Positions 2,950-63,773 of a stretch of 64,000 bases of DNA are shown one piece after another (within the stretch, counting starts at the first letter, position 1; the number at the start of each line of letters is the position of its first letter). The stretch spans positions 139,134 through 203,133 of the forward strand of contig CAVRJV010000014.1 in the NCBI GenBank assembly GCA_963721485.1, given 5' to 3'. The position numbers and the translations under genes are program-made. The stretch comes from an uncultured delta proteobacterium. Its GTDB lineage: Bacteria > Desulfobacterota > Binatia > Binatales > Binataceae. The notes beneath the pieces are model-generated. The model ran no database searches, was not told the origin of the DNA, and was given only the letters and a program-made list of their open reading frames with translations.

Positions 2950-4514
2950 GCAGATCGAGCTGCGGAAAAATGTGGCGGCGCAGTCCGGGCAGATGAATGT
3001 TGATCCAGTAGTCGTGCCAATCGATCAGGTCGGGACGAAACGGATGATGCTCGGCGTCGGCCGGCTTGAGCGACGCATAAAGCGCGCGAATGTTGCCTGC
3101 GTGAAAGGTGTAAACCAGCTCCTGGATATACGGGCGATAGACCTCGACCAGTTCGCGCGCGAGATCTGTATTCTCCTTGAACTTGTCGATCCCGGCCTCA
3201 ATCTTTTTCGCGCGCTGATTCTCCTCGCCCACGACGCTGCGCGCGAACGCCGCCGCCTGCTTGAGAATCTGCGGAAGCCGTGTTGCTGGCGAGGTCGTAA
3301 GTGTTCTGCGAGACGACGACGGCTTCCAGATGCGGGCCCAGCCAGCGCATCGTGCCAGCCGTCCTTGCGATGCTCGCGGCGATTGCTGAGCGCAGTCAGC
3401 TCGACCAGCCGGCGCATCGGCAGCGGATTCCGATCCGAAGTGCAGAGCTGGTAGATGGGCTTGTGCCGGCGCGACAGCAGCGCGGCGAGAATCGGAACCA
3501 TCGCATGCGCGGCGAGATCGACCGGGATCACGTCGAGCACCAGCTCCGCGCTTGGCGGGATAGAAGCGGTAGCCGCGGCCGGCGAGGTAAGTCAGCGGCG
3601 CGCTGGTGTTGACGCCCTGGTTCCATCCGGGGAACGGATCGCGCAGCGCGCTTTCGATCACCGCCGGGCGCACGACCGTGACGTTGAGCGTGTCGCGATC
3701 CGCGAGCACCAACTGCTCGCCGAGGCTCTTGGTGTAGCTGTACGTGTTGGGCCATCCCCAACTCTGCGCGCGCTTGCGGCCGACTTCCTTGAGGCGCTCC
3801 TCGACCCATTGCTTGCGCCGATGCTCGACTGGCGGACTCGCGCGGATTGCCGTCTTCGTCGGATTCGTCGCTCGCGAAACTCGGCGTGACGCAATTGATC
3901 GCGCGATTCGGCCTGCACTGCGCTCGATTGCCGCCAGCGCGTCGCGAATCTCGCGCTCAGGTTGAAAGATTTGCGGCCGATCGGGACACCAGTTCTCCGG
4001 GATGTCGTCTTCGTAGCGATGGCCGTCGGCGATGCCCGCGACGTAGCAGGTCGAGACGTGCATCATCGCGGCGCCGACTTTGTGGCAGAACTCGATGACG
4101 TTGGCGACGCCCGGTCGTGTTGACCTCGATCGCCTTTTCCAGCGACGCCTCGAAATTCACCAGCCCCGCGCAATGCACGACCGCGTCGAGGCTGCCCGGC
4201 TTGAACGGCTTCGCTTCGTCGCCGAGCAGGCCGTCATTGGTGATGTCGCCGGGAACGACGACGATCTTTTCTTCGATGTAGCGGTCGAACTTGTCGCCGA
4301 GATGTTCGCGCAGCGGGCCGAACACCGGCGAGTCGAGAATCTCGCGGCGAAAGCGGCTGAGGCTGCTGCGCCGGTCGCCGCGAATCAGCAGGTAGACGCG
4401 CTCGATCTCGGGATGCCATCGCAGCAGAATCGACAGAAACACTTTGCCGAGAAATCCGGTCGCGCCGGTCAGCAGGATGCGACGGCCCTTGAGCACCTGT
4501 TCGAGCGGCGGCAT
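2950..4514 (-). CDS. fatty acyl-CoA reductase (NAD(P)-binding, FAR/male-sterility family); frameshifted; possibly fused to the downstream ligase-ACP-acyltransferase
   Basis: The N-terminus [24 protein letters not shown] (Rossmann GxxGxxG) lies in the tail of ORF 3957-6842, with ATG at 4512-4514. The gene continues in ORF 2645-4066 ([18 protein letters not shown] = YxxxK catalytic motif) and ORF 3025-3540 ([13 protein letters not shown]). A FAR C-terminal segment ([16 protein letters not shown]...) reappears in the 2645-4066 frame. The 3' end is uncertain. Confidence 0.65.
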
Positions 4515-8215: not shown

Positions 8216-8345
8216 TTCCGCTTCCTTCGAGGGAAGGGTTAGGGGTTAGGCTCTTTGGCGCGAGCGCAGAATTTGGAATTTTGGAATTTGGTCCCCCCAC
8301 CCGCCGCGCGTGGACGCGCGTCGGCCTCCCCCCACGAACGGGGGA
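8216..8345. repeat. REP/BIME-like hairpin modules (cttccttcgagggaagg + gttagggg; cgcgcgtggacgcgcg; cctccccccacgaacgggggagg)
   Basis: This stretch consists of palindromic GC-rich modules. The 8293-8345 segment is about 80% identical to 56457-56525, and the hairpin plus 'gttagg' module recurs at 56336-56376 and 63809-63850. Confidence 0.6.
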
Positions 8346-8352
8346 GGCAATT

Positions 8353-35844: not shown

Positions 35845-36655
35845 ATGCCTGCGCTGATTTTCGAAAAACGCGAATCACGTCGCTTATCTCACACTCAACC
35901 GGCCCGAGGTTCACAATTCGCTGAATCCCGAAATGCTCGTGAGCCTCGCGGCGGCGTGGAAGGAGATCGATGAGCGACGACGCGGTTCGCGCGACGATCG
36001 TGACGGGCGCGGGCAAGGTCGCGTTCTCGGCCGGCGCCGATCTCGGGCAGTTGATTCCGCTGTTCACCGGCGCGCGCAAGCCCGAGGACGAATGGGACAG
36101 CAAGCTGCTCGCGGACCGCAAGCTCGGCGATATCGCGCTGCTGCGCGGCTACGACATGGACAAGCCGGTGATTTCGGCGGTCAACGGATTTTGCATCGCG
36201 GGCGGAATGGAATTCATCCAGGGCACCGATCTTCGCGTCGCGTCGGAGAACGCGAGCTTCGGCTTGCAGGAAGTGAAGTGGGCGATCATCCCGGCGGCCG
36301 GATCGCTGGCGCGACTTCAGCGGCAGATTCCGTACTGCAAGGCGATGGAGATTCTGCTGACGGGCAACCGCATCGACGCGCAGGAGGCGTGGCGGCTCGG
36401 GACTCGTCAACTACGTCGTGCCGCAGGAGAAGCTGATCGCGAAGGCGGAAGAACTTGGCGGCGACGATCGCGCAGAACGGACCGCTGGCGGTGCGCAAGA
36501 TCAAGGAAGCGGTGCGGCGAACGTCGGGGCGTCCGTACGAAGAGGCGTTCAAGATCGAAAACGAAATCGCGCGCGAGGTGATGAAGTCCGAGGACGCGAA
36601 GGAAGGTCCGCGCTCGTTCATGGAGAAGCGCAAGCCCAACTACAAAGGCCGATAG
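35845..36655 (+). CDS. enoyl-CoA hydratase/isomerase (crotonase) family; frameshifted
   Basis: AAGGAG lies 8 nt upstream of ATG 35845. ORF 35970-36581 gives IVTGAGKVAFSAGADL and ISAVNGFCIAGGMEF. ORF 36455-36655 gives the C-terminus EGPRSFMEKRKPNYKGR. Confidence 0.8.
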
Positions 36656-36658
36656 CGA

Positions 36659-37672
36659 TCAAGCTCCGGCGAGCGCGCGCATCGTGTTGGGATAGTCGCG
36701 CGACGTAGTGGCGGCGGGGCCGATCGGAAAGACCACGGGATGCGTGACGCCGGCGGCGCGGAAGCGCGCGACGAAATCGCGCCCTGCCTGCGCATTTCCG
36801 AACACTGCGATCTTGCGGCACGATGCTTCCGAGATGGCTCTGGGAGCCTCGTCGCGCTTGCCTTCCTTCCACAGCCGGCGCACCTCGTCGAACTCGGCGG
36901 CGAGTCCGTAGCGCGCGAACATCTTGTTGTAGCTGTCGACGAATGCGTAGCCGCCAGCTCGCGCCGGAACGAATCGACCGCTTTCGCTTCGTCTTCGGTG
37001 ATGCACATGCGGATGTAGATGCCGACGTCGACGGCGGACGGGTCGCGCCCCGCGGCTTTGGCGCCCTCGGCGATGTGCTGCACCATCTGCGGGATCGCCT
37101 CGGGCGGCGAGTAGTTCATCAGGACGCCGTCGGCGACTTCGCCGGCGAGGCGCAGCATCGGCGCGTTGAGGCCGGCGAGATAAATTTTCGGCGGACGCGG
37201 CGCCGTGATGCGCATGCTCAGCTTGAAGTCGGACTTGTACACCTCGCCCTGGAACTTCGAGCGGCCCTCGGTGAACAGCTGGCGCATGATGGTGACGCAT
37301 TCGCGCATCGCGGTTACCGGCTTGCGATACGACGCGCCGTGCCATCGCTCGACGATGATCGGACTCGATACGCCGAGCCCCGCGATGGCGCGGCCGCCCG
37401 ACAGTTCGTTGATGGTGAGGAATCCCATCGCCATCGCGCCCGGCGTGCGAATCTGCATCGGGATGACGCCGGTCGCGAGTTCGGCTTTGCGGGTGTTGAC
37501 CGCGAGCGCGGCGAGACTGACGAACGCGTCGGGGCCGCTGACTTCGGCGATCCACAGACGAAGTGTAGCCGAGGTCCTCGGCCTCGCGGATGAGTGCGAG
37601 GCGGGCGGGGAGAGCGTCGTCGCCGACGCCGACGTTGGTTTGAAGTCCGAGCTTTTGGGCTGATGGCATCAT
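36659..37672 (-). CDS. LLM-class (luciferase-like) flavin/F420-dependent oxidoreductase; frameshifted
   Basis: ORF 36659-37672 gives the N-terminus MMPSAQKLGLQTNVGVGDDALPARLALIREAEDLGYTS. ORF 36640-37458 gives the core (GRAIAGLGVSSPIIVERWHG...YLAGLNAPMLRLAGEVADGVLMN). Confidence 0.7.
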   Translation of the reverse strand: MMPSAQKLGLQTNVGVGDDALPARLALIREAEDLGYTSSVDRRSQRPRRVRQSRRARGQHPQSRTRDRRHPDADSHAGRDGDGIPHHQRTVGRPRHRGARRIESDHRRAMARRVVSQAGNRDARMRHHHAPAVHRGPLEVPGRGVQVRLQAEHAHHGAASAENLSRRPQRADAAPRRRSRRRRPDELLAARGDPADGAAHRRGRQSRGARPVRRRRRHLHPHVHHRRRSESGRFVPARAGGYAFVDSYNKMFARYGLAAEFDEVRRLWKEGKRDEAPRAISEASCRKIAVFGNAQAGRDFVARFRAAGVTHPVVFPIGPAATTSRDYPNTMRALAGA

Positions 37673-37902
37673 AAACTCTGCTAGTGGTTCCAGTCAGTTT
37701 GACGAGATTCCTACCATAGGTTGTGGTCAAGGGAGGATCGATCCACCAGGGGTCGTTTCGTTCCGTAAATAATGTGCTTGCAACAATGCGGTGGCCGCCG
37801 GTTCTTCGGATCGAGGAGCTAACGTCTCGGAGGGTCCCATAGCTTAGGAGTAGCACGTCAAATCGGGTTGGGTAAGGCTGAAAAGTTCATCCCCCCGAAG
37901 GT

Positions 37903-38008
37903 GCGCTGCGCGATTTCGGAGACCGGAACCGGCTTCGGTTGCGCGAAGCTGTGCGAGGTCCTTCCTCCCGTCGCTATCGCTCCGGTCGTCAGGATGAGAC
38001 AAGAGAGG
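37903..38008 (+). repeat. intergenic repeat family A, copy 1 (about 105 bp, internal hairpin ggcttcgGTTGCGcgaagc)
   Basis: Copies 1 and 2 are about 87-90% identical; copy 3 at 62297-62400 is roughly 80% identical. All three are in the same orientation. Indels between copies break any reading frame, so the element is non-coding. Confidence 0.8.
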
Positions 38009-38104
38009 GAAGAGCTGTCAGTTCATTTCGAATTTGAGTTGCGCAGAGTGGGCGGGTATTCGATTATGGCTGCGAGAAGAAAGCGAGACAGGGAGCGGTG
38101 AACG

Positions 38105-38865
38105 ATGGCTTACTTTGATTCCGACGGCGTGCAGATTTATTTCGAGGAACATGGTACGGGCGAGCCGGTCGTGCTGGTGCATGGGTTTGCGTCGCGCGCG
38201 GAGCATAACTGGGGTCTGACGAGTGGTACACCGCGCTCGCACCGCACTATCGCGTCATCGCGCTTGATTGTCGCGGTCATGGCAAGAGCGGCAAGCCGCA
38301 CGATGCGGGGGCATACGGCGGCGAGACGATGGGCGACGACGTCATTCGGCTCATGGACCATCTCGGAATCAGGCGGACGTTGATCATGGGCTACTCGATG
38401 GGCGGGCGAATCGTGACGGGACTGCTGATGCATCATCCGGAGCGTCTGTGCGCGGCAGTGCTTGGCGGAATCGGGGCGGCAACTGCGACAGAGCCGTCAT
38501 TCGATCGCAAGCCGATCGTCGATGCGTTGCTCGCAGAGAGCGATGCAGGCGTTAAGGAGCAGCGCGAACGGGAATTTCGCCAGTTTGCGGAGGCTGCCGG
38601 CAACGACCTGAAGGCGTTGGCGGCGTGCATGGGATCGAATCGCGAAGATTTCACAGCGGAACAGATTGCCGCGCAGAAGATTCGCGTGCCTGTGATGATC
38701 GTGATCGGGACGAAGGATCTGCTGGTCGGCAATCCCAAGCTGCTGCACGACGCGATTCCCGGCAGCAAGCTGGTGATGCTTGAGGGACGCGATCATCTGA
38801 ACGCTCCCGGCGACCATCGCTACAAGGAAGCGGTGTTGGAGTTTTTCAAATCGGCGCCAGCGTAA
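38105..38865 (+). CDS. alpha/beta-fold hydrolase; one frameshift near 38225
   Basis: VVLVHGFASRA is followed by the nucleophile elbow MGYSMGG and a C-terminal His region (GRDHLNAPGDH) in ORFs 38105-38383 and 38329-38865. Confidence 0.8.
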
Positions 38866-38879
38866 TAATTTGAGATCGA

Positions 38880-39302
38880 TCAGATATCAGATGCGCGGGT
38901 GAAGTCGGCGGCCGGCCGGTTCAACCATCTGAAGATCCGCATTACGCCGGGGAACACGACTCGTTTTCCTTTCGACAGGTGTATCAGGCTCGCGACGTTT
39001 GTGCCGATTTCCTTTGCGACCTCGGGCCATGTGATTTCTCTCTCGAGGCGGCGAGCGTCGAGCGCCGCATAGATCTTCTTCGCGTCGAATCGTAGAACCT
39101 TGCCGGGGGGAACGTCCGGCAGGCGCGCATCGATCTGTTCCGACTCGCGGTAGCCCGGCATGAAACTCTCCGGCGTGCGATTCAGCCATCGGAGCATCGC
39201 GAGCACGCCGTCACCCTCGGCGGCTGACCTGGTGCGGGTGCCCGTCATCGTAGATGCGCTGAGGCGACGAGCGGTGGCAGGGCGCTGGTGCATCTGATGC
39301 AT
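38880..39302 (-). CDS. hypothetical protein with an internal tandem duplication of an approximately 45-aa module
   Basis: ORF 38880-39539 contains RLRTLYNALDAQRRARGLSWSGVTREM and KKIYAALDARRLEREITWPEVAKEIG, each followed by ...LRWLNRTP / ...FRWLNRP. The upstream part overlaps repeat A copy 2 and is unlikely to be coding. The start is uncertain. Confidence 0.35.
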   Translation of the reverse strand: MHQMHQRPATARRLSASTMTGTRTRSAAEGDGVLAMLRWLNRTPESFMPGYRESEQIDARLPDVPPGKVLRFDAKKIYAALDARRLEREITWPEVAKEIGTNVASLIHLSKGKRVVFPGVMRIFRWLNRPAADFTRASDI

Positions 39303-39431
39303 TTCTCTCGTAACTCCCGACCACGAGAGTCCGCGCGCTCGGCGCTGCGCGTCGAGCGCGTTATAGAGAGTGCGAAGACGGAAGTCGTTCGATGACGCCA
39401 CGGTTGTTATCTCGGGACCGATTCTAGAAGA

Positions 39432-39536
39432 GCGCTGCGCGATTTCAAAACCGGTACCGGCTTCGCTTGCGCGAAGCTGTCCGAGGTCCTTCCTCCCGTC
39501 GCTAACGCTCCCGTCGTCAGGATGACACGAGAGTCG
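39432..39536 (+). repeat. intergenic repeat family A, copy 2
   Basis: See copy 1. Copy 2 lies between the hypothetical gene and the gspN stop. Confidence 0.8.
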
Positions 39537-39551
39537 CATTTCTCGCGTCGT

Positions 39552-40382
39552 TCAGCTGATTCGGGGGGCGGTTAGGGTGCCGGTCAGGTGGTAGGGTTGG
39601 GGGCCCGGGGGGTGGGGCAGGGTTGAGAGGAGCATTCCTAGTTGGGCGGAGGCGGCGGGAGTCGTCGATAGGGTGAACTGGATTGCGAGCGCACTTTCGC
39701 CAGGATCGGGCGCTAGTTGGATTGTTCCCTCAGCGGTCAACGTCAAGTCGCCGCCGCTCGTCTTGAATTCCTCGATCGTTAGCGTGCCTTGATCCAGTTT
39801 GAATTTTGAATGGCCCTGGCCGAGACGGATTGGCGACGATGCCAGCGGCGACACCAGCGTCAAGCCGGCGGCGCTCAGGTCGCCGCCGCCGCTTTCCGCG
39901 ATGTCATCGGAAGAGAGCAAGAGACTGCCGCTGCCGGAGAGTCTGCCCGACGCGTCGGCGCCGGGAATCGCGACGAAGTGCTGACGCGCGATATCCACCG
40001 AGTTGAGGTCGTAGCTGATTGCGGTGCCGCCGCTGCTGGGACGGAGCATGACGTTGACGATGCCGTCGAAGAGCGCGGCCTTCACGCGGACGCCCGGATG
40101 CATCGAGAGCATCGAGAGAAACGCAGGCGCGATCGTTACGGTTGGGCTCTCGACGATCAGCCCGGGGGAGGCGGGACGCGTGGAGATCAGGCGCACTTCG
40201 GAAAGCCGCGCGCCGAAGGGGAAGCTCGCGCTCTGACTCGTGCTCGAGACCTCGAGGCCCATCGGCGCGAGCAGTTTCGACAGAGTGGCGGAGTAGGGGA
40301 AGGTGGAAATCAGGTACGCGGCGAACAGCGTGAGGCCGACCACCGCGTAGCCGACGCGCACGAGAGCCGGTCGCCGCAGCAT
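39552..40382 (-). CDS. gspN: type II secretion system protein N
   Basis: It is the last gene of the gsp operon. The N-terminus MLRRPALVRVGYAVVGLTLFAAYLIS is a signal anchor, followed by a periplasmic domain. Both size (about 276 aa) and position match GspN. Confidence 0.65.
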   Translation of the reverse strand: MLRRPALVRVGYAVVGLTLFAAYLISTFPYSATLSKLLAPMGLEVSSTSQSASFPFGARLSEVRLISTRPASPGLIVESPTVTIAPAFLSMLSMHPGVRVKAALFDGIVNVMLRPSSGGTAISYDLNSVDIARQHFVAIPGADASGRLSGSGSLLLSSDDIAESGGGDLSAAGLTLVSPLASSPIRLGQGHSKFKLDQGTLTIEEFKTSGGDLTLTAEGTIQLAPDPGESALAIQFTLSTTPAASAQLGMLLSTLPHPPGPQPYHLTGTLTAPRIS

Positions 40383-40404
40383 GGCGGAGACGCCGCCGTT
40401 TAAA

Positions 40405-41049
40405 TCAGGTGTTCTTGGCGAGCGCGACACAGGTGAGGTCAACGTCATACGAATGCGTGTCCTGGGTGCGGCGCTGGATGCGGATATTCGATACGCCAAT
40501 CGGCATCGAGAGCGAATTGATGCCGTAGAGGGCGTCAACCAACTGCGCGAGATTCACGTTGTCGAGCTTCAACTGCACGCTGTACTCGGTGAAGCCGTCG
40601 CTGAGCTTGCGATCGGAGCCGGGCGTGATCGAGCCGATCTTCTCGCGTCCGACGCTCTTGGTCATCGACGCTTCGACGACCGAGAACAGCGAGAAATCCT
40701 TGCCCATCGGCACCGTGCGACGCTCGGCGTTGGCGAGGTCGCCCTTGAGCTGCGCATAGGTGGCGGCGAGACGGCGAACCTGCGCGAGATCGTTCTGCCG
40801 CTGGGCAATCTTCGCGTCGAGCCCCGAGCTGAGGTCGACGATCGGCGTATAGACAAGATTGTAGATGAGAAAAACGCCGACCAGGCCGGCGGCGATTTGC
40901 ACCAGGATGCGTTCGCGCGGCTCGAGTTTCTGATAGCGGCTGCGCGCCTGCGCGAGATAGGGATCGATGCGGACAGCCGCCTGCTTAAGCCACGGCCGAA
41001 GCAGGTCCATCACTCGTGCGCGCAAATTGTCGATCCATTCTCTAAGCAT
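40405..41049 (-). CDS. gspM: type II secretion system protein M
   Basis: The ORF is intact at 214 aa. It has an N-terminal TM helix (ILVQIAAGLVGVFLIYNLVYTPI) and sits between gspL and gspN. Confidence 0.75.
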   Translation of the reverse strand: MLREWIDNLRARVMDLLRPWLKQAAVRIDPYLAQARSRYQKLEPRERILVQIAAGLVGVFLIYNLVYTPIVDLSSGLDAKIAQRQNDLAQVRRLAATYAQLKGDLANAERRTVPMGKDFSLFSVVEASMTKSVGREKIGSITPGSDRKLSDGFTEYSVQLKLDNVNLAQLVDALYGINSLSMPIGVSNIRIQRRTQDTHSYDVDLTCVALAKNT

Positions 41050-51830: not shown

Positions 51831-51889
51831 CACTGGGTGCAGGGGGTCCCCCCTGCCGAAGGAAGTTTGAAACCCACCGCGGGTTTCAA
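51831..51889 (-). repeat. intergenic repeat family B, copy 1 (inverted orientation; hairpin tgaaacccNNNNgggtttca + cttccttcggcaggggNNcccctgcac)
   Basis: Its reverse complement matches the 5' part of the copies at 52838-52929 and 56213-56304. Confidence 0.75.
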
Positions 51890-51895
51890 GTTAGA

Positions 51896-52777
51896 TTAAT
51901 TCTTCTTGTTCCCTTTTTTCTTCGACGCGCGATTCTTCGAGCGCGGGCCCGAGCCATAATCGCCGAATGGATCGTCGCGATCGCGGACTGCCTGCCGAAA
52001 TCCTGCTGCTTGCGCGCGCGCGACGAAATCGAGGCCTTCCTGCGTGTGCCGCGCGATCCCGTCGAACAGCGATCCAACCAGCCTCGACGTCGCGAGGCCC
52101 ATATTCTCCGCCGTGTGATTGCAGAGCAGCTTCAGCATCTGCAGTTGATTCGTCGGCACTCGCGCCATCCGCTCGGCCAGCGCGGTCGCGCGCGCGTCGA
52201 GTTCGTCGTCGGGGACGGTTTCGAGAATCAGTCCGATACGCGCAGCTTCGGGCGCGGGGATTTCATCGCCGGTCAGCAAGTAACGCTTGGCGCGTTCGAG
52301 GCCCATCCGATAGACCCACATCGCGGTGGTCGGCGTGCCCCACACCCGCGACGGCGGATAGCCGAACGACGCCGACTCGGCGGCGATGATCAGGTCGGCG
52401 CATAGCACCATGTCGGTGCCGCCGCCGATACACCATCCGTGAACCGCGGCGATAGTCGGTTTCCGCGCGTACCAGAGCTTCATGTAGACGTTGACGTATT
52501 GCGAGATCATCCCGTAGTCGGCGACCGAGTCCCACACGCGCTTGCGCGACCCTTCGCCGGCCTGCGCGCGGGTCGAGCCGTCGAGTGCGTAGCCGGCGCA
52601 GAACGCGGGACCCTCGGCGCGAAGCAGGATTACGTGGACGCCTGGGTCGGCGTCGGCGCGATCGATCGCGGCGGCCAGCTCGTCGCGCAGGTCGGGAGTG
52701 ATCGTGTTGTACTCGGCAGCGCGCGTGAGCGTGATGATACCGACGCCGTTGCGAGTCTCGGTGCGCAGAGTTTTCAT
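51896..52777 (-). CDS. enoyl-CoA hydratase/isomerase family
   Basis: The ORF is intact at 293 aa. It carries ILLRAEGPAFCAGYAL and IAAVHGWCIGGGTDMVLCADLIIAAE. Confidence 0.85.
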   Translation of the reverse strand: MKTLRTETRNGVGIITLTRAAEYNTITPDLRDELAAAIDRADADPGVHVILLRAEGPAFCAGYALDGSTRAQAGEGSRKRVWDSVADYGMISQYVNVYMKLWYARKPTIAAVHGWCIGGGTDMVLCADLIIAAESASFGYPPSRVWGTPTTAMWVYRMGLERAKRYLLTGDEIPAPEAARIGLILETVPDDELDARATALAERMARVPTNQLQMLKLLCNHTAENMGLATSRLVGSLFDGIARHTQEGLDFVARAQAAGFRQAVRDRDDPFGDYGSGPRSKNRASKKKGNKKN

Positions 52778-52837
52778 GGGAGTCGGATATAGCAGAGCAC
52801 GTAGGGAAAGGGGGAAGGGCAGATCACTTTATTTTAA

Positions 52838-52929
52838 TGTGAAACCCGACGTGGGTTTCACGCTTCCTTCGGCAGGGGTAACCCCTGCACCTTGGCATCA
52901 AGAAAAGATGCGGGACTTCGTCCCTGTTA
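52838..52929 (+). repeat. intergenic repeat family B, copy 2
   Basis: The sequence is tgtgaaacccgacgtgggtttcacgcttccttcggcaggggtaacccctgcac...agatgcgggacttcgtccctgttag. It is about 90% identical to copy 3. Confidence 0.8.
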
Positions 52930-56204: not shown

Positions 56205-56530
56205 TAATTTAATTTGAAACCCACGGTGGGTTTCAAACTTCCTTCGGCAGGGGTGACCCCTGCACCCAGTAATATAAAGAGATGCGGGACTTCGTCCCTG
56301 TTAGGAACTCGTTTTGGGAGAGGCGGCGGCCGTCCGGGTTCCCTCCTCCTACGTGGGAGGAGGGTTAGGATGGAGGACAAATGCGCCGCGCAAATTTCTG
56401 GAGCACGGCACGTTCCTGTGCGGGTACGAGCAGCAATCAGAAATTTAGAAATTAAGGTCCTCCACCCGCCGTGCGCGAACGCACGTCGGCCTCCTCCCAC
56501 GAACGGAGGAGGCGAGGATAGGATTGTCGT
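56205..56530. repeat. composite REP/BIME-like array: repeat family B copy 3 (56213-56304) plus at least two further hairpin modules
   Basis: Family B copy 3 (56213-56304) is followed by a gttccctcctcctacgtgggaggagggttagg hairpin (56336-56376) and a 56457-56525 module matching 8293-8345. The array fills the intergenic space between the hydrolase and bcp. Confidence 0.8.
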
Positions 56531-61618: not shown

Positions 61619-62290
61619 ATGCCGGCTGATGATGCATCGCTGGAGGCGCTGGGGCGGTATGCGCTCCGGTACGTTAAGCCGGGGCAGACCTGGGTCTCGG
61701 CACCGGGCGGGCGGCCAGTGCGTTCATTCGGGCTTGGGAGCGAGCGGGATTAGCGTGCGCGGAGTGCCCACTTCCAAGGCGTCGGAAGAGTTGGCAAGGT
61801 CGGTGGGGATTCCGATCGTTACGTTGACCAGGCGGGAAAAATCGACATTGATATTGACGGGGCCGACGAGGTCGATCCGCGGCTCAATCTGATCAAGGGC
61901 TATGGTGGCGCGCTGGTGCGCGAGAAGATCGTGGCCGCGTCGTCGCGGCGGTTTGTCGTGCTGGTCGGTTACGAGAAGATCGTGAAGTGGCTGGGCGAGC
62001 GCGGGCCGCTTCCGGTCGAAGTGATGCCGTTCGGGTTGTCGCTGGTGAGGCGAAGATCAAGGCGATGGGGATGAAGCCGCAGGTTCGCGAAAAAGACGGT
62101 CAAGCAGTACATCACAGATAACGGCAACCTGATTCTCGACTGTGCGGTGAAGAAGATTGCGAATCCGGCGCGGCTGGATCGCGAGCTGCTCGCGATTCCG
62201 GGCGTGGTCGGCACCGGGTTGTTCATCGCGATGGCGGACGTGGTGCTGGTGGCGGAAGAGTCGGGGAAGATTCGCGCGTTCAAGCGGTAA
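61619..62290 (+). CDS. rpiA: ribose-5-phosphate isomerase A; about 3 frameshifts
   Basis: The N-terminus MPADDASLEALGRYALRYVKPGQT has its ATG at 61619. It is followed by VGLGTGRAASAFI (shifted frame) and VPTSKASEELARSVGIPIVTL...IDIDIDGADEVDPRLNLIKGYGGALVREKIVAASSRRFVVLV...GVVGTGLF. Confidence 0.8.
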
Positions 62291-62296
62291 GGAGGA

Positions 62297-62400
62297 GCGC
62301 TGCGCGATGTTCAGAACCGGAACCGGCTTCGCTCGCGGCGAAGCTGTCCGAGGTTCCTCCTCCCGTCGCTTCGCTCCTGTCGTCGGAATGACACACAGAC
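62297..62400 (+). repeat. intergenic repeat family A, copy 3
   Basis: See 37903-38008. It lies between the rpiA stop and the glycerate kinase start. Confidence 0.8.
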
Positions 62401-62418
62401 GTTGCTCGCGTCGTCAGA

Positions 62419-63773
62419 ATGACCGAGCTGCCGATGGCAGAAAGCGCAAGAGGGCCGATCTCGAGAAGATTTATCGCGCTGCGGTGGCGGCTGTTGATCC
62501 TGCGCTGCTCGTCGGCATCGCGATGGATGGGCGATGTTCCGGCGCGGAGCAGGTTCCCGATTTGATTGCGGGCGCGTCGCGAATTCTGCTGCTCGCGGTG
62601 GGCAAGGCGGCGGGCGCGAATGGCGCATGAAATCGAACGCCGCGTCGGGGACAGGCTCGCCGATGGAATCGCCGTGATCCCACGAAAGATCAGCGGGCGG
62701 CAGCGGCGCTGCTGTCGCCGGGATCGAAGATGCGAGTCGTTCGCGTCGAGTCATCCTGTCCCTGACGAGTCGTCGGAGCAAGCGGCGCTGTTGGCGTGCG
62801 AGATGCTGCATGGGGCGACGGCCGACGACCTGGTGATCGTCGCGATTAGCGGAGGCGCGTCGGCGATGTTCACGCTGCCTGCCGAGGGGCTCACGCTCGC
62901 CGACAAAATCGCGGTCAACGAGGCGCTGCTGAAAGCCGGGGCGTCGATTCGCGAGCTGAATACCGTGCGCAAGCATCTGTCGGCCGTGAAAGGCGGACGC
63001 CTGCTTGCCATTGCGGCGGAGCGCGCGTGCTCGGGCTGATTACTGTCCGATGTGCCGGGCAATGATTTGGCGACGATCGGGTCGGGGCTTGACTGCGGCG
63101 GACTGGAGCAGCTTCGGCGACGCCGTCTCGGTGATGAAGCGGCGCGGCGTGTGGGGGCGCGCGCCGGAGGCGGTGCGCTCGTACCTGGAGCGAGCGGTGG
63201 CGGGCGAAGTGGGCGCGACGGTGAAGACCGGCGATCCGATTCTCGAGCGCGTGACCAACGTGATAATCGGCGACGGCAATCTGGCTCTGGAAGGCGCCGA
63301 GCGGGCCGCGGTCAGAACTTGGGTATCATCCGCATCGATGGAAGGGGTTGCATGGCGAGGCTAACGACGCCGGCCGCGCAATCGCGGAGGACATGTGCGA
63401 GATCACACATGAGCGGGTGTGCGTCGTGGCGGGCGGTGAGCCGGTCGTGACGGTACGCGGGGGCGGGAAGGGTGGGCGCGCGCAACAATGTGCGCTGGCG
63501 ATGGGAATCGAGCTGTCGCAAATCGGGCGCGGGCGCCGAATCGCGGCGCTGGTCGCGGGCACGGACGGAATCGACGGGCCGACGGATGCGGCGGGCGCAT
63601 TTGCGTCGCCGGGCACGGTCGCCGATGGCGAGCGCGGCGAAGGTCAGTGCCGCGACCGCATTGACGCGCAACGACGCGTACAACTTTTTTCAAGGGGTCG
63701 GGCGGGCTGTTCATCGACGGGGCCGAGCGGGACCAACGTCAGCGACGTTTTTTTCGGGCTGGTGAATTATTGA
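62419..63773 (+). CDS. glycerate kinase (MOFRL family, glycerate 2-kinase/hydroxypyruvate reductase-associated type); about 4 frameshifts
   Basis: Segments lie across ORFs 62157-62630, 62566-63039, 63005-63364 and 63348-63773. They include EKIYRAAVAAVDPALLV, ILLLAVGKAAGAMA, DLVIVAISGGASAMFTLP, NTVRKHLSAVKGGRL, CVVAGGEPVVTVRGGGKGGRAQQCALA, GTDGIDGPTDAAGA and TGPSGTNVSDV. Confidence 0.75.

Follow-up and report, generated by a model that had tools for sequence, protein, structure and literature searches.

We have studied a short repeated sequence, here called repeat A, in a 64,000-nucleotide stretch of contig CAVRJV010000014.1 from an uncultured delta proteobacterium (Binatia, Binataceae); this whole stretch is referred to as the window. 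Three copies of A, all on the plus strand, lie in intergenic spacers of the window (Table 1). Copy 1 is found between an alpha/beta hydrolase gene and a gene for an LLM (luciferase-like monooxygenase) oxidoreductase, copy 2 between gspN and a gene for a helix-turn-helix (HTH) protein, and copy 3 between rpiA and glxK. Copy 2 is antisense to its two neighbors, both of which are on the minus strand, and copy 3 starts 1-3 nt past the rpiA stop codon. The copy bounds used here are those of a profile search (nhmmer), with the 3′ boundary at ...AGGATGACA (±2 nt). Over the coordinates of the original prediction, which was made from the sequence alone, the three copies share pairwise identities of 88.7%, 83.3% and 85.0% with three 1-nt indels, and their nhmmer E-values range from 1e-28 to 2e-32, in agreement with its claim of three direct copies at about 80-90% identity. 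The start motif GCGCTGCGCGAT and the end motif GTCGTC(A/G)G(G/A)ATGA(G/C)ACA are as it described, and so is the hairpin, CCGGCTTCG-loop-CGAAGCTG, which is found in all three copies, each with a different loop. A 27-nt degenerate core pattern matches the window twice, against 0.00 matches expected from shuffled sequences.

Repeat A corresponds to no catalogued RNA family and does not appear to encode protein. An Rfam scan of the whole window at the gathering threshold, a check that the original prediction had suggested, gave no match. At E<=10, positions 37600-39700 gave three chance-level matches (E 0.9-6) to eukaryotic or archaeal families, all below gathering scores and none on A. A protein-coding reading was rejected: the 1-nt indels break every frame, and the peptide likeness of copies 1 and 2 on the minus strand is lost in copy 3. 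Open reading frames (ORFs) that run through A, such as a 219-aa minus-strand ORF over copy 2, are not conserved because the indels place the copies in different reading frames.

Table 1. Positions of repeats, genes and other features. Coordinates refer to the window unless a related locus (L number) is named.
Feature	Position	Strand	Basis or remark
Repeat A copy 1, subfamily A1	37898-38004	+	sequence, alignment, nhmmer E=7.5e-31
Copy 1 apical hairpin	37929-37951		
Copy 1 long-range helix	GTCCT 37958-37962 with AGGAT 37991-37995		
Repeat A copy 2, subfamily A1	39427-39532	+	sequence, alignment, nhmmer E=2.3e-32
Copy 2 apical hairpin	39457-39479		
Copy 2 long-range helix	GTCCT 39486-39490 with AGGAT 39519-39523		
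Repeat A copy 3, subfamily A1, GTTCC/GGAAT haplotype	62290-62397	+	sequence, nhmmer E=1e-28
Copy 3 apical hairpin	62323-62346		
Copy 3 long-range helix	GTTCC 62353-62357 with GGAAT 62385-62389		
Partial tandem repeat of A 3′ module (GCTCGCGTCGTCAGAATGAC)	62401-62426	+	nhmmer, model positions 83-108, E=0.028
Repeat X	37674-37901	+	~230 nt, directly abuts 5′ end of copy 1; alignment of 10 X copies
Repeat X, genome loci	L014 7484-7711; L012 5072-5277; L007 3758-4004 (-); L030 1694-1923		
Repeat X, further loci	L034 12471-12713 (-); L040 3914-4139 (-); L035 11585-11823 (-); L046 4163-4400 (-); L054 1755-1997 (-)		
Third repeat	L040 ~2330-2400; L056 ~2800-2870; L046 ~3900-4160		hairpin
Further repeat family	8270-8348; 56435-56513		GC-rich hairpins past AT-rich run
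Other further repeat family	51843-51899 (-); 52829-52891; 56205-56266		GAAACCC..GGGTTTC hairpin + GGGGT.ACCCC
Enoyl-CoA hydratase gene	35970-36655		split by single frameshift
LLM oxidoreductase gene	36640-37672		split by single frameshift
Hydrolase gene	38105-38383 and 38329-38865		split by single frameshift
HTH gene	38880-~39404	-	
gspN	39552-40538	-	
rpiA	61754-62289		split by single frameshift
glxK/MOFRL	62400-63770		split by single frameshift
HTH gene copies in other loci	L018 1391-1909 (-); L040 2423-2929; L046 4414-4920; L056 2885-3388; L066 6345-6878		
Insertions in hydrolase-LLM spacer of relatives	L035 9311-11555; L056 4224-5600; L039 11525-12628		
Promoter-like match at copy 2	39448 to 39421	-	sigma-70-like pattern

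It is evident that A is dispersed well beyond the window. For the genome search we used the core with wildcards, AGCTGTNCGAGGTNNNTCCTCCCGTC, a pattern that fixes CCUCCC and the bases of the hairpin 3′ arm. It matches 30 places (loci L001-L030) in about 10 species-representative metagenome-assembled genomes (MAGs) of Binatia/Binatus, with 3-7 matches per genome. The matching MAGs are all from soil or peat (“uncultured delta proteobacterium” of Microflora Danica, “Deltaproteobacteria bacterium palsa_1089” and “Candidatus Binatus sp.”), and their taxonomy is Binatus/Binatia/Binatota; CAVOUW01, CAWJET01, CAVQEQ01 and CAVUUH01 are near-complete long-read Binatus assemblies among them; viral contigs gave 0 matches for the patterns of A and of the neighboring repeat X. 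A profile built from the pattern-found copies gave about 46 A matches in about 0.92 Mb, including diverged copies in genome and metagenome loci. Some of these (L011b, L013a, L019a, L029b, L034 and L040) belong to a second subfamily, A2, which has a different 5′ arm, a different 3′ arm and a compensated apical stem, and does not have the CCUCCC motif. All A copies are intergenic. Head-to-head inverted pairs about 20 nt apart are present in L011, L013, L028 and L029, tandem copies in L007, full copies followed by 3′ half copies in L005, L013, L017 and L018, isolated 5′ halves in L005 and L019, and tandem or partial arrays in L007, L017 and L019. According to an alignment of the flanks, about half of the copies, including copy 3 of the window, are closely followed by a second 3′ module, GCTCGC..GTCAGGATGAC. 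The density of A varies: the window has 3 copies in its 64 kb, the related gspM loci have 3 in a total of 615 kb, and the 54 kb of rpiA loci have 0, which suggests a lineage-specific expansion. The dispersed intergenic repeat of the MITE (miniature inverted-repeat transposable element) or REP (repetitive extragenic palindrome) kind that the original prediction had proposed is borne out, with multiple copies in about 10 species-level genomes.

Pair counts made on 40 distinct A copies support three helices on the plus strand. The apical hairpin, helix (i), consists of 9 + 3 bp separated by an asymmetric internal loop; it is 97% paired, and subfamily A2 shows UA to GC double changes at two of its pairs. 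Helix (ii), of 5 bp, joins GUCCU, immediately past the hairpin on its 3′ side, with AGGAU, six bases short of the 3′ end, and is 99% paired. Two of its pairs have changed on both sides, CG/UA in 8 sequences and UA/CG in 17, and G·U has become A-U in 6; its haplotypes GUCCU/AGGAU, GUCCC/GGGAU and GUUCC/GGAAU each occur at several loci in several genomes. Helix (iii) pairs the 5′ arm with the 3′ arm (GGAGCG..GCGAU with GUCGC..CGCUCC). Among the aligned copies it is 70-85% paired, and it is swapped for another complementary arm pair in A2. Helix (ii) crosses helix (iii), and together they make a pseudoknot unless the two are alternatives. The covariation score of A is 0.160, compared with 0.105±0.006 for shuffles (0/500 reach 0.160) and <=0.073 for slid controls, and the covarying positions of helix (ii) are wildcards in the search pattern or lie outside it. 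The compensatory changes are common to whole subfamilies, each of which has been amplified across loci and species. G·U pairs greatly outnumber A·C pairs (113 vs 23 overall, 76 vs 4 in the well-aligned helices), and therefore the plus strand is the folded strand. RNAalifold, run on 32 copies, found the apical hairpin and missed the long-range helix; the latter was noticed on visual inspection and afterwards put to the test by counting its pairs explicitly. Single-sequence folding energies are only mildly better than those of shuffles (z = +0.6 to -2.6). The compensatory changes in both the apical hairpin and the long-range helix answer in the affirmative the question of stem covariation raised with the original prediction.

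All three sites that hold A in the window are empty in close relatives. The site of copy 1, the hydrolase-LLM spacer, contains A in the window, L034 and L040 and none in, for example, L031, L055 and L042. Among 26 loci that span this spacer, 24 are without A: 16 have a spacer of 64-126 nt, and 8 more have a longer spacer yet no A. In the window, L034 and L040 the spacer reaches 433-488 nt and holds X directly followed by A, the two together making an insertion of about 330 nt. The site of copy 2, the gspN-HTH spacer, contains A in the window and in L033, a third hairpin repeat (CCCCTTCC...GGGTTAGGGTTAGG) in L040 and L056, X plus the third repeat in L046, and nothing in L066. The site of copy 3, the rpiA-glxK spacer, is about 30 nt and without A in all three relatives found via RpiA homologues (L111, L112 and L113). 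Turnover is also seen where orthologous spacers are both occupied. At the copy 1 site, the window carries A1 and L034 and L040 carry A2; an orthologous inverted pair (L028 3394-3613 and L013 4578-4796) has the two subfamilies in swapped positions; and an orthologous single copy (L004 4310-4407 and L019 3138-3246) is in opposite orientation. These swapped and flipped copies point to inversion, to conversion or to independent insertions recurring at preferred sites. The orthologous copies of L014 and L021 are about 96% identical, compared with 87.6% over the adjacent 2.4 kb. The original prediction had named as refuting evidence an occurrence in only three places, with no covariation and no presence/absence polymorphism; on every count that could be tested we found the opposite, the polymorphism being evident from the empty sites of all three copies. 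As a side observation, the only in-frame start upstream of the conserved GlxK N-terminus (ADLEKIYRAAV) is an ATG in the 3′ end of copy 3 (GGAATGACA, 62386-62440), and glxK in relatives has a TTG start in a short, unrelated spacer. The insertion of copy 3 may have remodeled the 5′ end of glxK, a reading that the frameshift errors described below make uncertain.

We then consider the genes between copies 1 and 2, which the original prediction had regarded as a possible repeat-flanked cassette. Its account of position holds, in that copies 1 and 2 do flank the hydrolase and a hypothetical gene, and its gene models do not: the hydrolase ORF, given as 38105-38865, is split by a frameshift, and the internally duplicated hypothetical gene ends at about 39404 and not at 39302. 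The product of the latter is about 172 aa (the L018 homologue is of 172 aa) and has two tandem Cro/C1-like HTH repeats, with a weak Pfam match to HTH_26 (E=0.086). A metagenome scan with the window protein GspM of the type II secretion system yielded 80 related loci (615 kb), in which genes were mapped by tblastn. The order gspM-gspN-hydrolase (opposite strand)-LLM oxidoreductase-enoyl-CoA hydratase is kept in nearly all loci that are long enough, down to about 50% GspM identity, and the hydrolase is found between gspN and the LLM oxidoreductase gene in 43 of the metagenome loci. Because this gene order is conserved in relatives, the hydrolase is a resident gene. The HTH gene is an accessory gene, the only variable member of the locus from gspM to the hydratase; of about 45 related loci, only 5 (the window, L040, L046, L056 and L066) have it inserted between gspN and the hydrolase. 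In palsa_1089 (L018) it lies between dapB and a major facilitator superfamily (MFS) transporter gene, again adjoining an A copy, and in L040, L056 and L066 it occurs without A, which rules out the HTH protein as a partner of A.

Several other observations concern the same genes. The hydrolase, LLM oxidoreductase, enoyl-CoA hydratase, rpiA and glxK genes of the window are each split by a single frameshift, and their orthologues are intact in related metagenome contigs (e.g., hydrolase of 253 aa and LLM oxidoreductase of 336 aa in L035 and L056). The splits look like indel errors from long reads and not like pseudogenization. The divergent hydrolase-LLM spacer is an insertion hotspot in relatives, with inserts that contain DUF4238 and DUF5677-like genes beside an X copy in L035, a gene for a 458-aa repeat-rich secreted protein in L056 and 1.1 kb of uncharacterized sequence in L039.

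The copies of A occur in all four orientation classes relative to their neighboring genes (convergent, divergent, co-directional sense and co-directional antisense), on which two home-made gene callers agree. The upstream gene is co-oriented with A in about two thirds of the copies (26 vs 15 and 22 vs 10 with the two callers), and the downstream gene shows no orientation preference (19 vs 20 and 13 vs 17). Both callers are imperfect. Composition-based calling (GC3, GC1-GC2) mis-calls shadow ORFs in this frameshift-rich sequence of 63% GC; a codon model trained on the called genes of L111-L113 made 0 wrong-strand calls on 20 test genes and missed 6. Genes between neighboring A copies are ordinary and unrelated, such as thiolase and OB-fold genes in L005 and a secreted protein gene in L019. 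These results do not support the suggestion that A regulates the gene downstream of it as a 5′-UTR (untranslated region) element. Copy 2 is antisense, all four contexts are represented, including convergent genes and inverted pairs, and the downstream genes are unrelated. With no Rfam match in addition, we rejected a riboswitch or other 5′-leader cis-regulator. In the flank alignment the copies share no conserved sequence 5′ of A; in most of them the 5′ flank ends in AA. No terminator-like U-tract or intrinsic terminator follows A at any of the three window copies, and the only promoter-like site there is a minus-strand match at copy 2. This match, TTGAAA-16-TAGAAT (10/12), resembles a sigma-70 promoter by pattern and faces the start of the HTH gene; the 5′ end of copy 2, read as its reverse complement, supplies the -35 box, and the insertion may have created a hybrid promoter directed outward.

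In 29 of 41 copies, A lies on the strand that is locally G-rich; the count is 19 vs 6 after inverted pairs are dropped and orthologues collapsed by hand. Co-orientation with most of the nearby coding sequence is seen in only 7 of 22 loci (crude caller) and does not explain this bias. As skew measured locally over 8 kb is a poor indicator of the direction of replication, the strand bias is suggestive only.

Some copies of A are accompanied by repeat X, a second dispersed family. We identified X by nhmmer at 10 loci with 11 matches, one locus having a second, partial match; it lies directly 5′ of A in the same orientation in 6 of the 10 loci and is found alone in 4. Its invariant blocks are ATACCAT..GT(T/A)GTGG-variable hairpin-CCAC.A.GGGTAGTTTCGTTCCGTCAAAA, then TAGTAGCACG, then GGTAAGGCTGAAAAGTTCATCCC. 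X has no Rfam match, and RNAalifold gave no convincing consensus fold for it. A pairing of the X 3′ end (GTTCATCC) with the A 3′ end (GGATGAC) was considered and dropped, as no covariation was seen by eye. On the minus strand, the 5′ end of X has a conserved TGGTATnnA, similar to an extended -10 element and facing away from A. The third repeat consists of the hairpin CCCCTTCC-loop-GGAAGGGG followed by GTTAGGGTTAGG, and it fills the same gspN-HTH spacer in which the window has A. Two more intergenic repeat families, with 80-93% identity, are present in the window.

Taken together, these results can be best explained by A being a non-coding, non-autonomous, structure-dependent mobile repeat of about 105 nt, of the MITE/REP/ERIC kind (ERIC, enterobacterial repetitive intergenic consensus), that has spread within Binatus/Binatia genomes. 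We put the probability of this reading at about 0.6. That A is an interspersed repeat is supported by its multiple copies within one lineage, its intergenic location in any orientation, its clusters, halves and composites, its empty sites, and the turnover of subfamily and orientation. A would have spread by insertion into, and turnover within, intergenic DNA. Since compensatory changes define the amplified subfamilies, the fold appears to have been selected in the propagating lineage and would be needed for copying or mobilization. The strand specificity of the fold suggests that A is mobilized as a single strand, and it would probably be recognized in trans by an enzyme encoded elsewhere. 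The candidate chemistries are single-stranded DNA (ssDNA) transposition of the HUH type (named for a histidine-hydrophobic-histidine motif), another transposase, or recombination and gene conversion. Sense copies would also fold in the 3′ regions of mRNAs and, by analogy with REP and ERIC, may incidentally affect transcript stability.

A number of points weigh against this reading. No transposase or other mobilizing gene was found, and there is no transposase ORF between neighboring A copies; a crude regex for HUH/Y1 motifs in six frames of the 0.92 Mb of locus sequence gave no candidate. Three comparisons of filled and empty sites, in which the flanks are diverged and A-rich on both sides, show no visible target-site duplication (TSD) and no sharp empty-site junction. 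The presence/absence pattern may partly stem from deletion and not insertion, and the high identity of orthologous A copies may mean a host function under purifying selection. The number of A copies per genome appears to be modest, tens and not hundreds. The 30 genome loci were ascertained by a pattern containing CCUCCC and the hairpin 3′ arm, which makes the invariance of those bases in L001-L030 uninformative. Finally, the gene-context counts are approximate, coming from home-made callers with known errors.

Several observations would fit a different reading, in which A is a host-beneficial UTR RNA whose pseudoknot blocks 3′-exonucleases or directs RNase processing and sets cistron stability, its multiplicity reflecting recruitment instead of selfish spread. 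Such a role in cistron stability is known for some REP, ERIC and Correia elements, and the strand-specific fold with its conserved G·U pairs and compensatory changes, the location of about two thirds of the copies downstream of a co-oriented gene, the start of copy 3 just past the rpiA stop, and the higher conservation of orthologous copies than of adjacent coding DNA are all consistent with it. However, one third of the copies, copy 2 among them, run antisense to the gene next upstream; A commonly forms inverted pairs, half copies and degenerate arrays; the flanking genes are functionally unrelated; most close relatives are without A at the same three sites; and A is not followed by a terminator-like U-tract. 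We consider a UTR function of this kind unlikely as the main explanation. The cassette reading, in which the A copies are recombination sites (attC-like or a hotspot) bounding a mobile unit of hydrolase and HTH gene, can draw on the two direct copies that bracket 1.4 kb and on the variable HTH gene, which in palsa_1089 is found elsewhere and again beside A. It is hardly credible in view of the comparison of relatives for 38105-39302, in which the hydrolase is conserved without A (nearly all of the 43 syntenic loci, and 24 of the 26 that span the spacer) and the HTH gene alone is variable, occurring without A in three loci. Moreover, copy 1 lies beyond the hydrolase within an X-A insertion, other pairs of A bracket ordinary, unrelated genes, the window has no cassette array, and no GTTRRRY-type core was seen by eye in the A copies, for which no pattern or integrase search was made.

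It could also be argued that A, or X-A, is a family of genes for trans-acting small RNAs (sRNAs) in which a UCCUCCC segment masks Shine-Dalgarno (SD) sequences, like the cuckoo/CcsR sRNAs of alphaproteobacteria. A CCUCC-type anti-SD-like motif is indeed unpaired between the strands of the covarying helix, the C/U-rich segment is exactly CCUCCUCCC in two of the three haplotypes (GTTCC and GTCCC), the plus strand is the folded strand, and CCUCCUCCC in hairpin loops is the defining feature of the cuckoo family, itself multi-copy and tandem (PMC4615179). On the other hand, the motif was imposed by the search pattern in L001-L030 and is missing from the profile-found A2 copies; the 5′ sequence is not conserved, so that the copies share no promoter, and there is no intrinsic terminator; each unit has one motif and not 2-4 hairpins; and no sRNA family was matched in the Rfam scans. 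These results make an sRNA family of this type very improbable. In the broader sense A may still be a small structured RNA, given its strand-specific fold, though it comes with no conserved promoter or terminator.

Returning to A as a mobile repeat, a more specific mechanism can be imagined. The GUCCU/AGGAU helix could be a guide-target pairing that places the 3′ end of A by the foot of the hairpin for single-strand cleavage and joining, with A, alone or with X, as the cis substrate of an undescribed HUH-type or RNA-mediated system in Binatota; another possibility is that X-A represents a new kind of non-coding RNA with a defined structure. We regard this as a long shot. In less specific terms, A is a candidate substrate of single-strand mobilization because it has a strand-specific, compensated fold with a crossing helix and has neither terminal inverted repeats (TIRs) nor a visible TSD. 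The crossing, covarying helix in the absence of TIRs and a visible TSD is the one feature of A that could lead to something new, and its partner enzyme could be a worthwhile find.

The phylum Binatota is uncultured, all knowledge of it coming from metagenomes, and the literature that we searched has no description of its repeats. A, X and at least one further hairpin repeat mark variable intergenic hotspots in these genomes. A explains local assembly and annotation problems, as ORF callers read through it (the ORF over copy 2 is a case in point), and can serve as a lineage-specific marker for strain typing. In practical terms the outcome for the window is negative, the hydrolase being an ordinary syntenic gene and not cargo.

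A is a previously undescribed family within a known kind of bacterial interspersed repeat, and its resemblance to the known systems is uneven. Integron attC sites are a poor match, as A copies are dispersed, e.g., between rpiA and glxK, and the bracketed hydrolase is syntenic without A. Like the cuckoo/CcsR (RSs0680) sRNAs, A is multi-copy, sometimes tandem, and has an unpaired C/U-rich anti-SD-like motif (PMC4615179), but that family is alphaproteobacterial and has 2-4 adjacent motif-bearing hairpins, whereas A has one motif at most and A2 has none. REP sequences are 20-40 bp, with a GTAG or CGTC tag beside an 8-9-bp stem (PMC3733652), and lie preferentially downstream of genes and between unidirectional or convergent ORFs (PMC3733652; PMC3116915). 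A shares with REPs and their paired forms (REPINs) the extragenic location, this positional preference, multiple copies, head-to-head dimers and clusters, a strand-specific compensated hairpin, and the lack of TIRs and of a visible TSD. It differs in having a unit of about 105 nt with three helices instead of one 20-40-bp stem-loop, and apparently fewer copies. As to the tag, A has no GTAG and has a CGTC near its 3′ end (CCCGTCGTCAGGATGAC) followed by only a 3-5-bp stem, and no gene for a REP-associated tyrosine transposase (RAYT) was found by an HUH...Y regex over the 0.92 Mb of locus sequence.

MITEs such as Correia/NEMIS, RPE and Nezha are, like A, small, non-autonomous, non-coding, multi-copy and insertion-polymorphic, and they can supply promoter or structure elements to neighboring genes, as A possibly does. 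However, MITEs are defined by TIRs matching a parent insertion sequence (IS) and by TSDs, neither of which is seen in A. The 5′ arm of A (GGAGCGCTGCGCGAT) is complementary to the internal GTCGC..CGCTCC, beyond which there is a 16-nt tail, so that the termini are not inverted repeats. A may work like the ends of IS200/IS605 elements and PATEs (palindrome-associated transposable elements), which have a strand-specific subterminal imperfect hairpin and short internal sequences that pair near the element end; further points of resemblance are the absence of TIRs and of a visible TSD and a tendency for the folded strand to be the G-rich strand. In IS608 the guide lies 5′ of the hairpin, whereas in A the pairing segment lies 3′ of it, and no tnpA or tnpB was found near A. 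The IS200/IS605 resemblance should be taken as a lead and not as a test.

ERIC sequences, also known as intergenic repeat units (IRUs), and the enterobacterial repeat unit (RU) sequences are imperfect palindromes of about 100-170 nt with no known dedicated transposase. Reviews of such elements are available (PMC2229807, PMC3184786). A shows no sequence relationship to ERIC, belongs to a different phylum (Binatota), has no terminal inverted repeats, and has a 3′ tail that pairs back into the body as a crossing helix, a feature not described for ERIC. Nevertheless, A resembles ERIC/IRU in its size of about 100-130 nt, its non-coding nature, its intergenic location in either orientation, its insertion polymorphism between related species, its long imperfect hairpin, and its variants generated via internal insertions or half copies. 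A is closest to ERIC-like imperfect palindromes in size and behavior, and in its possible mechanism it may be closest to REP/RAYT or IS200/IS605-type single-strand elements.

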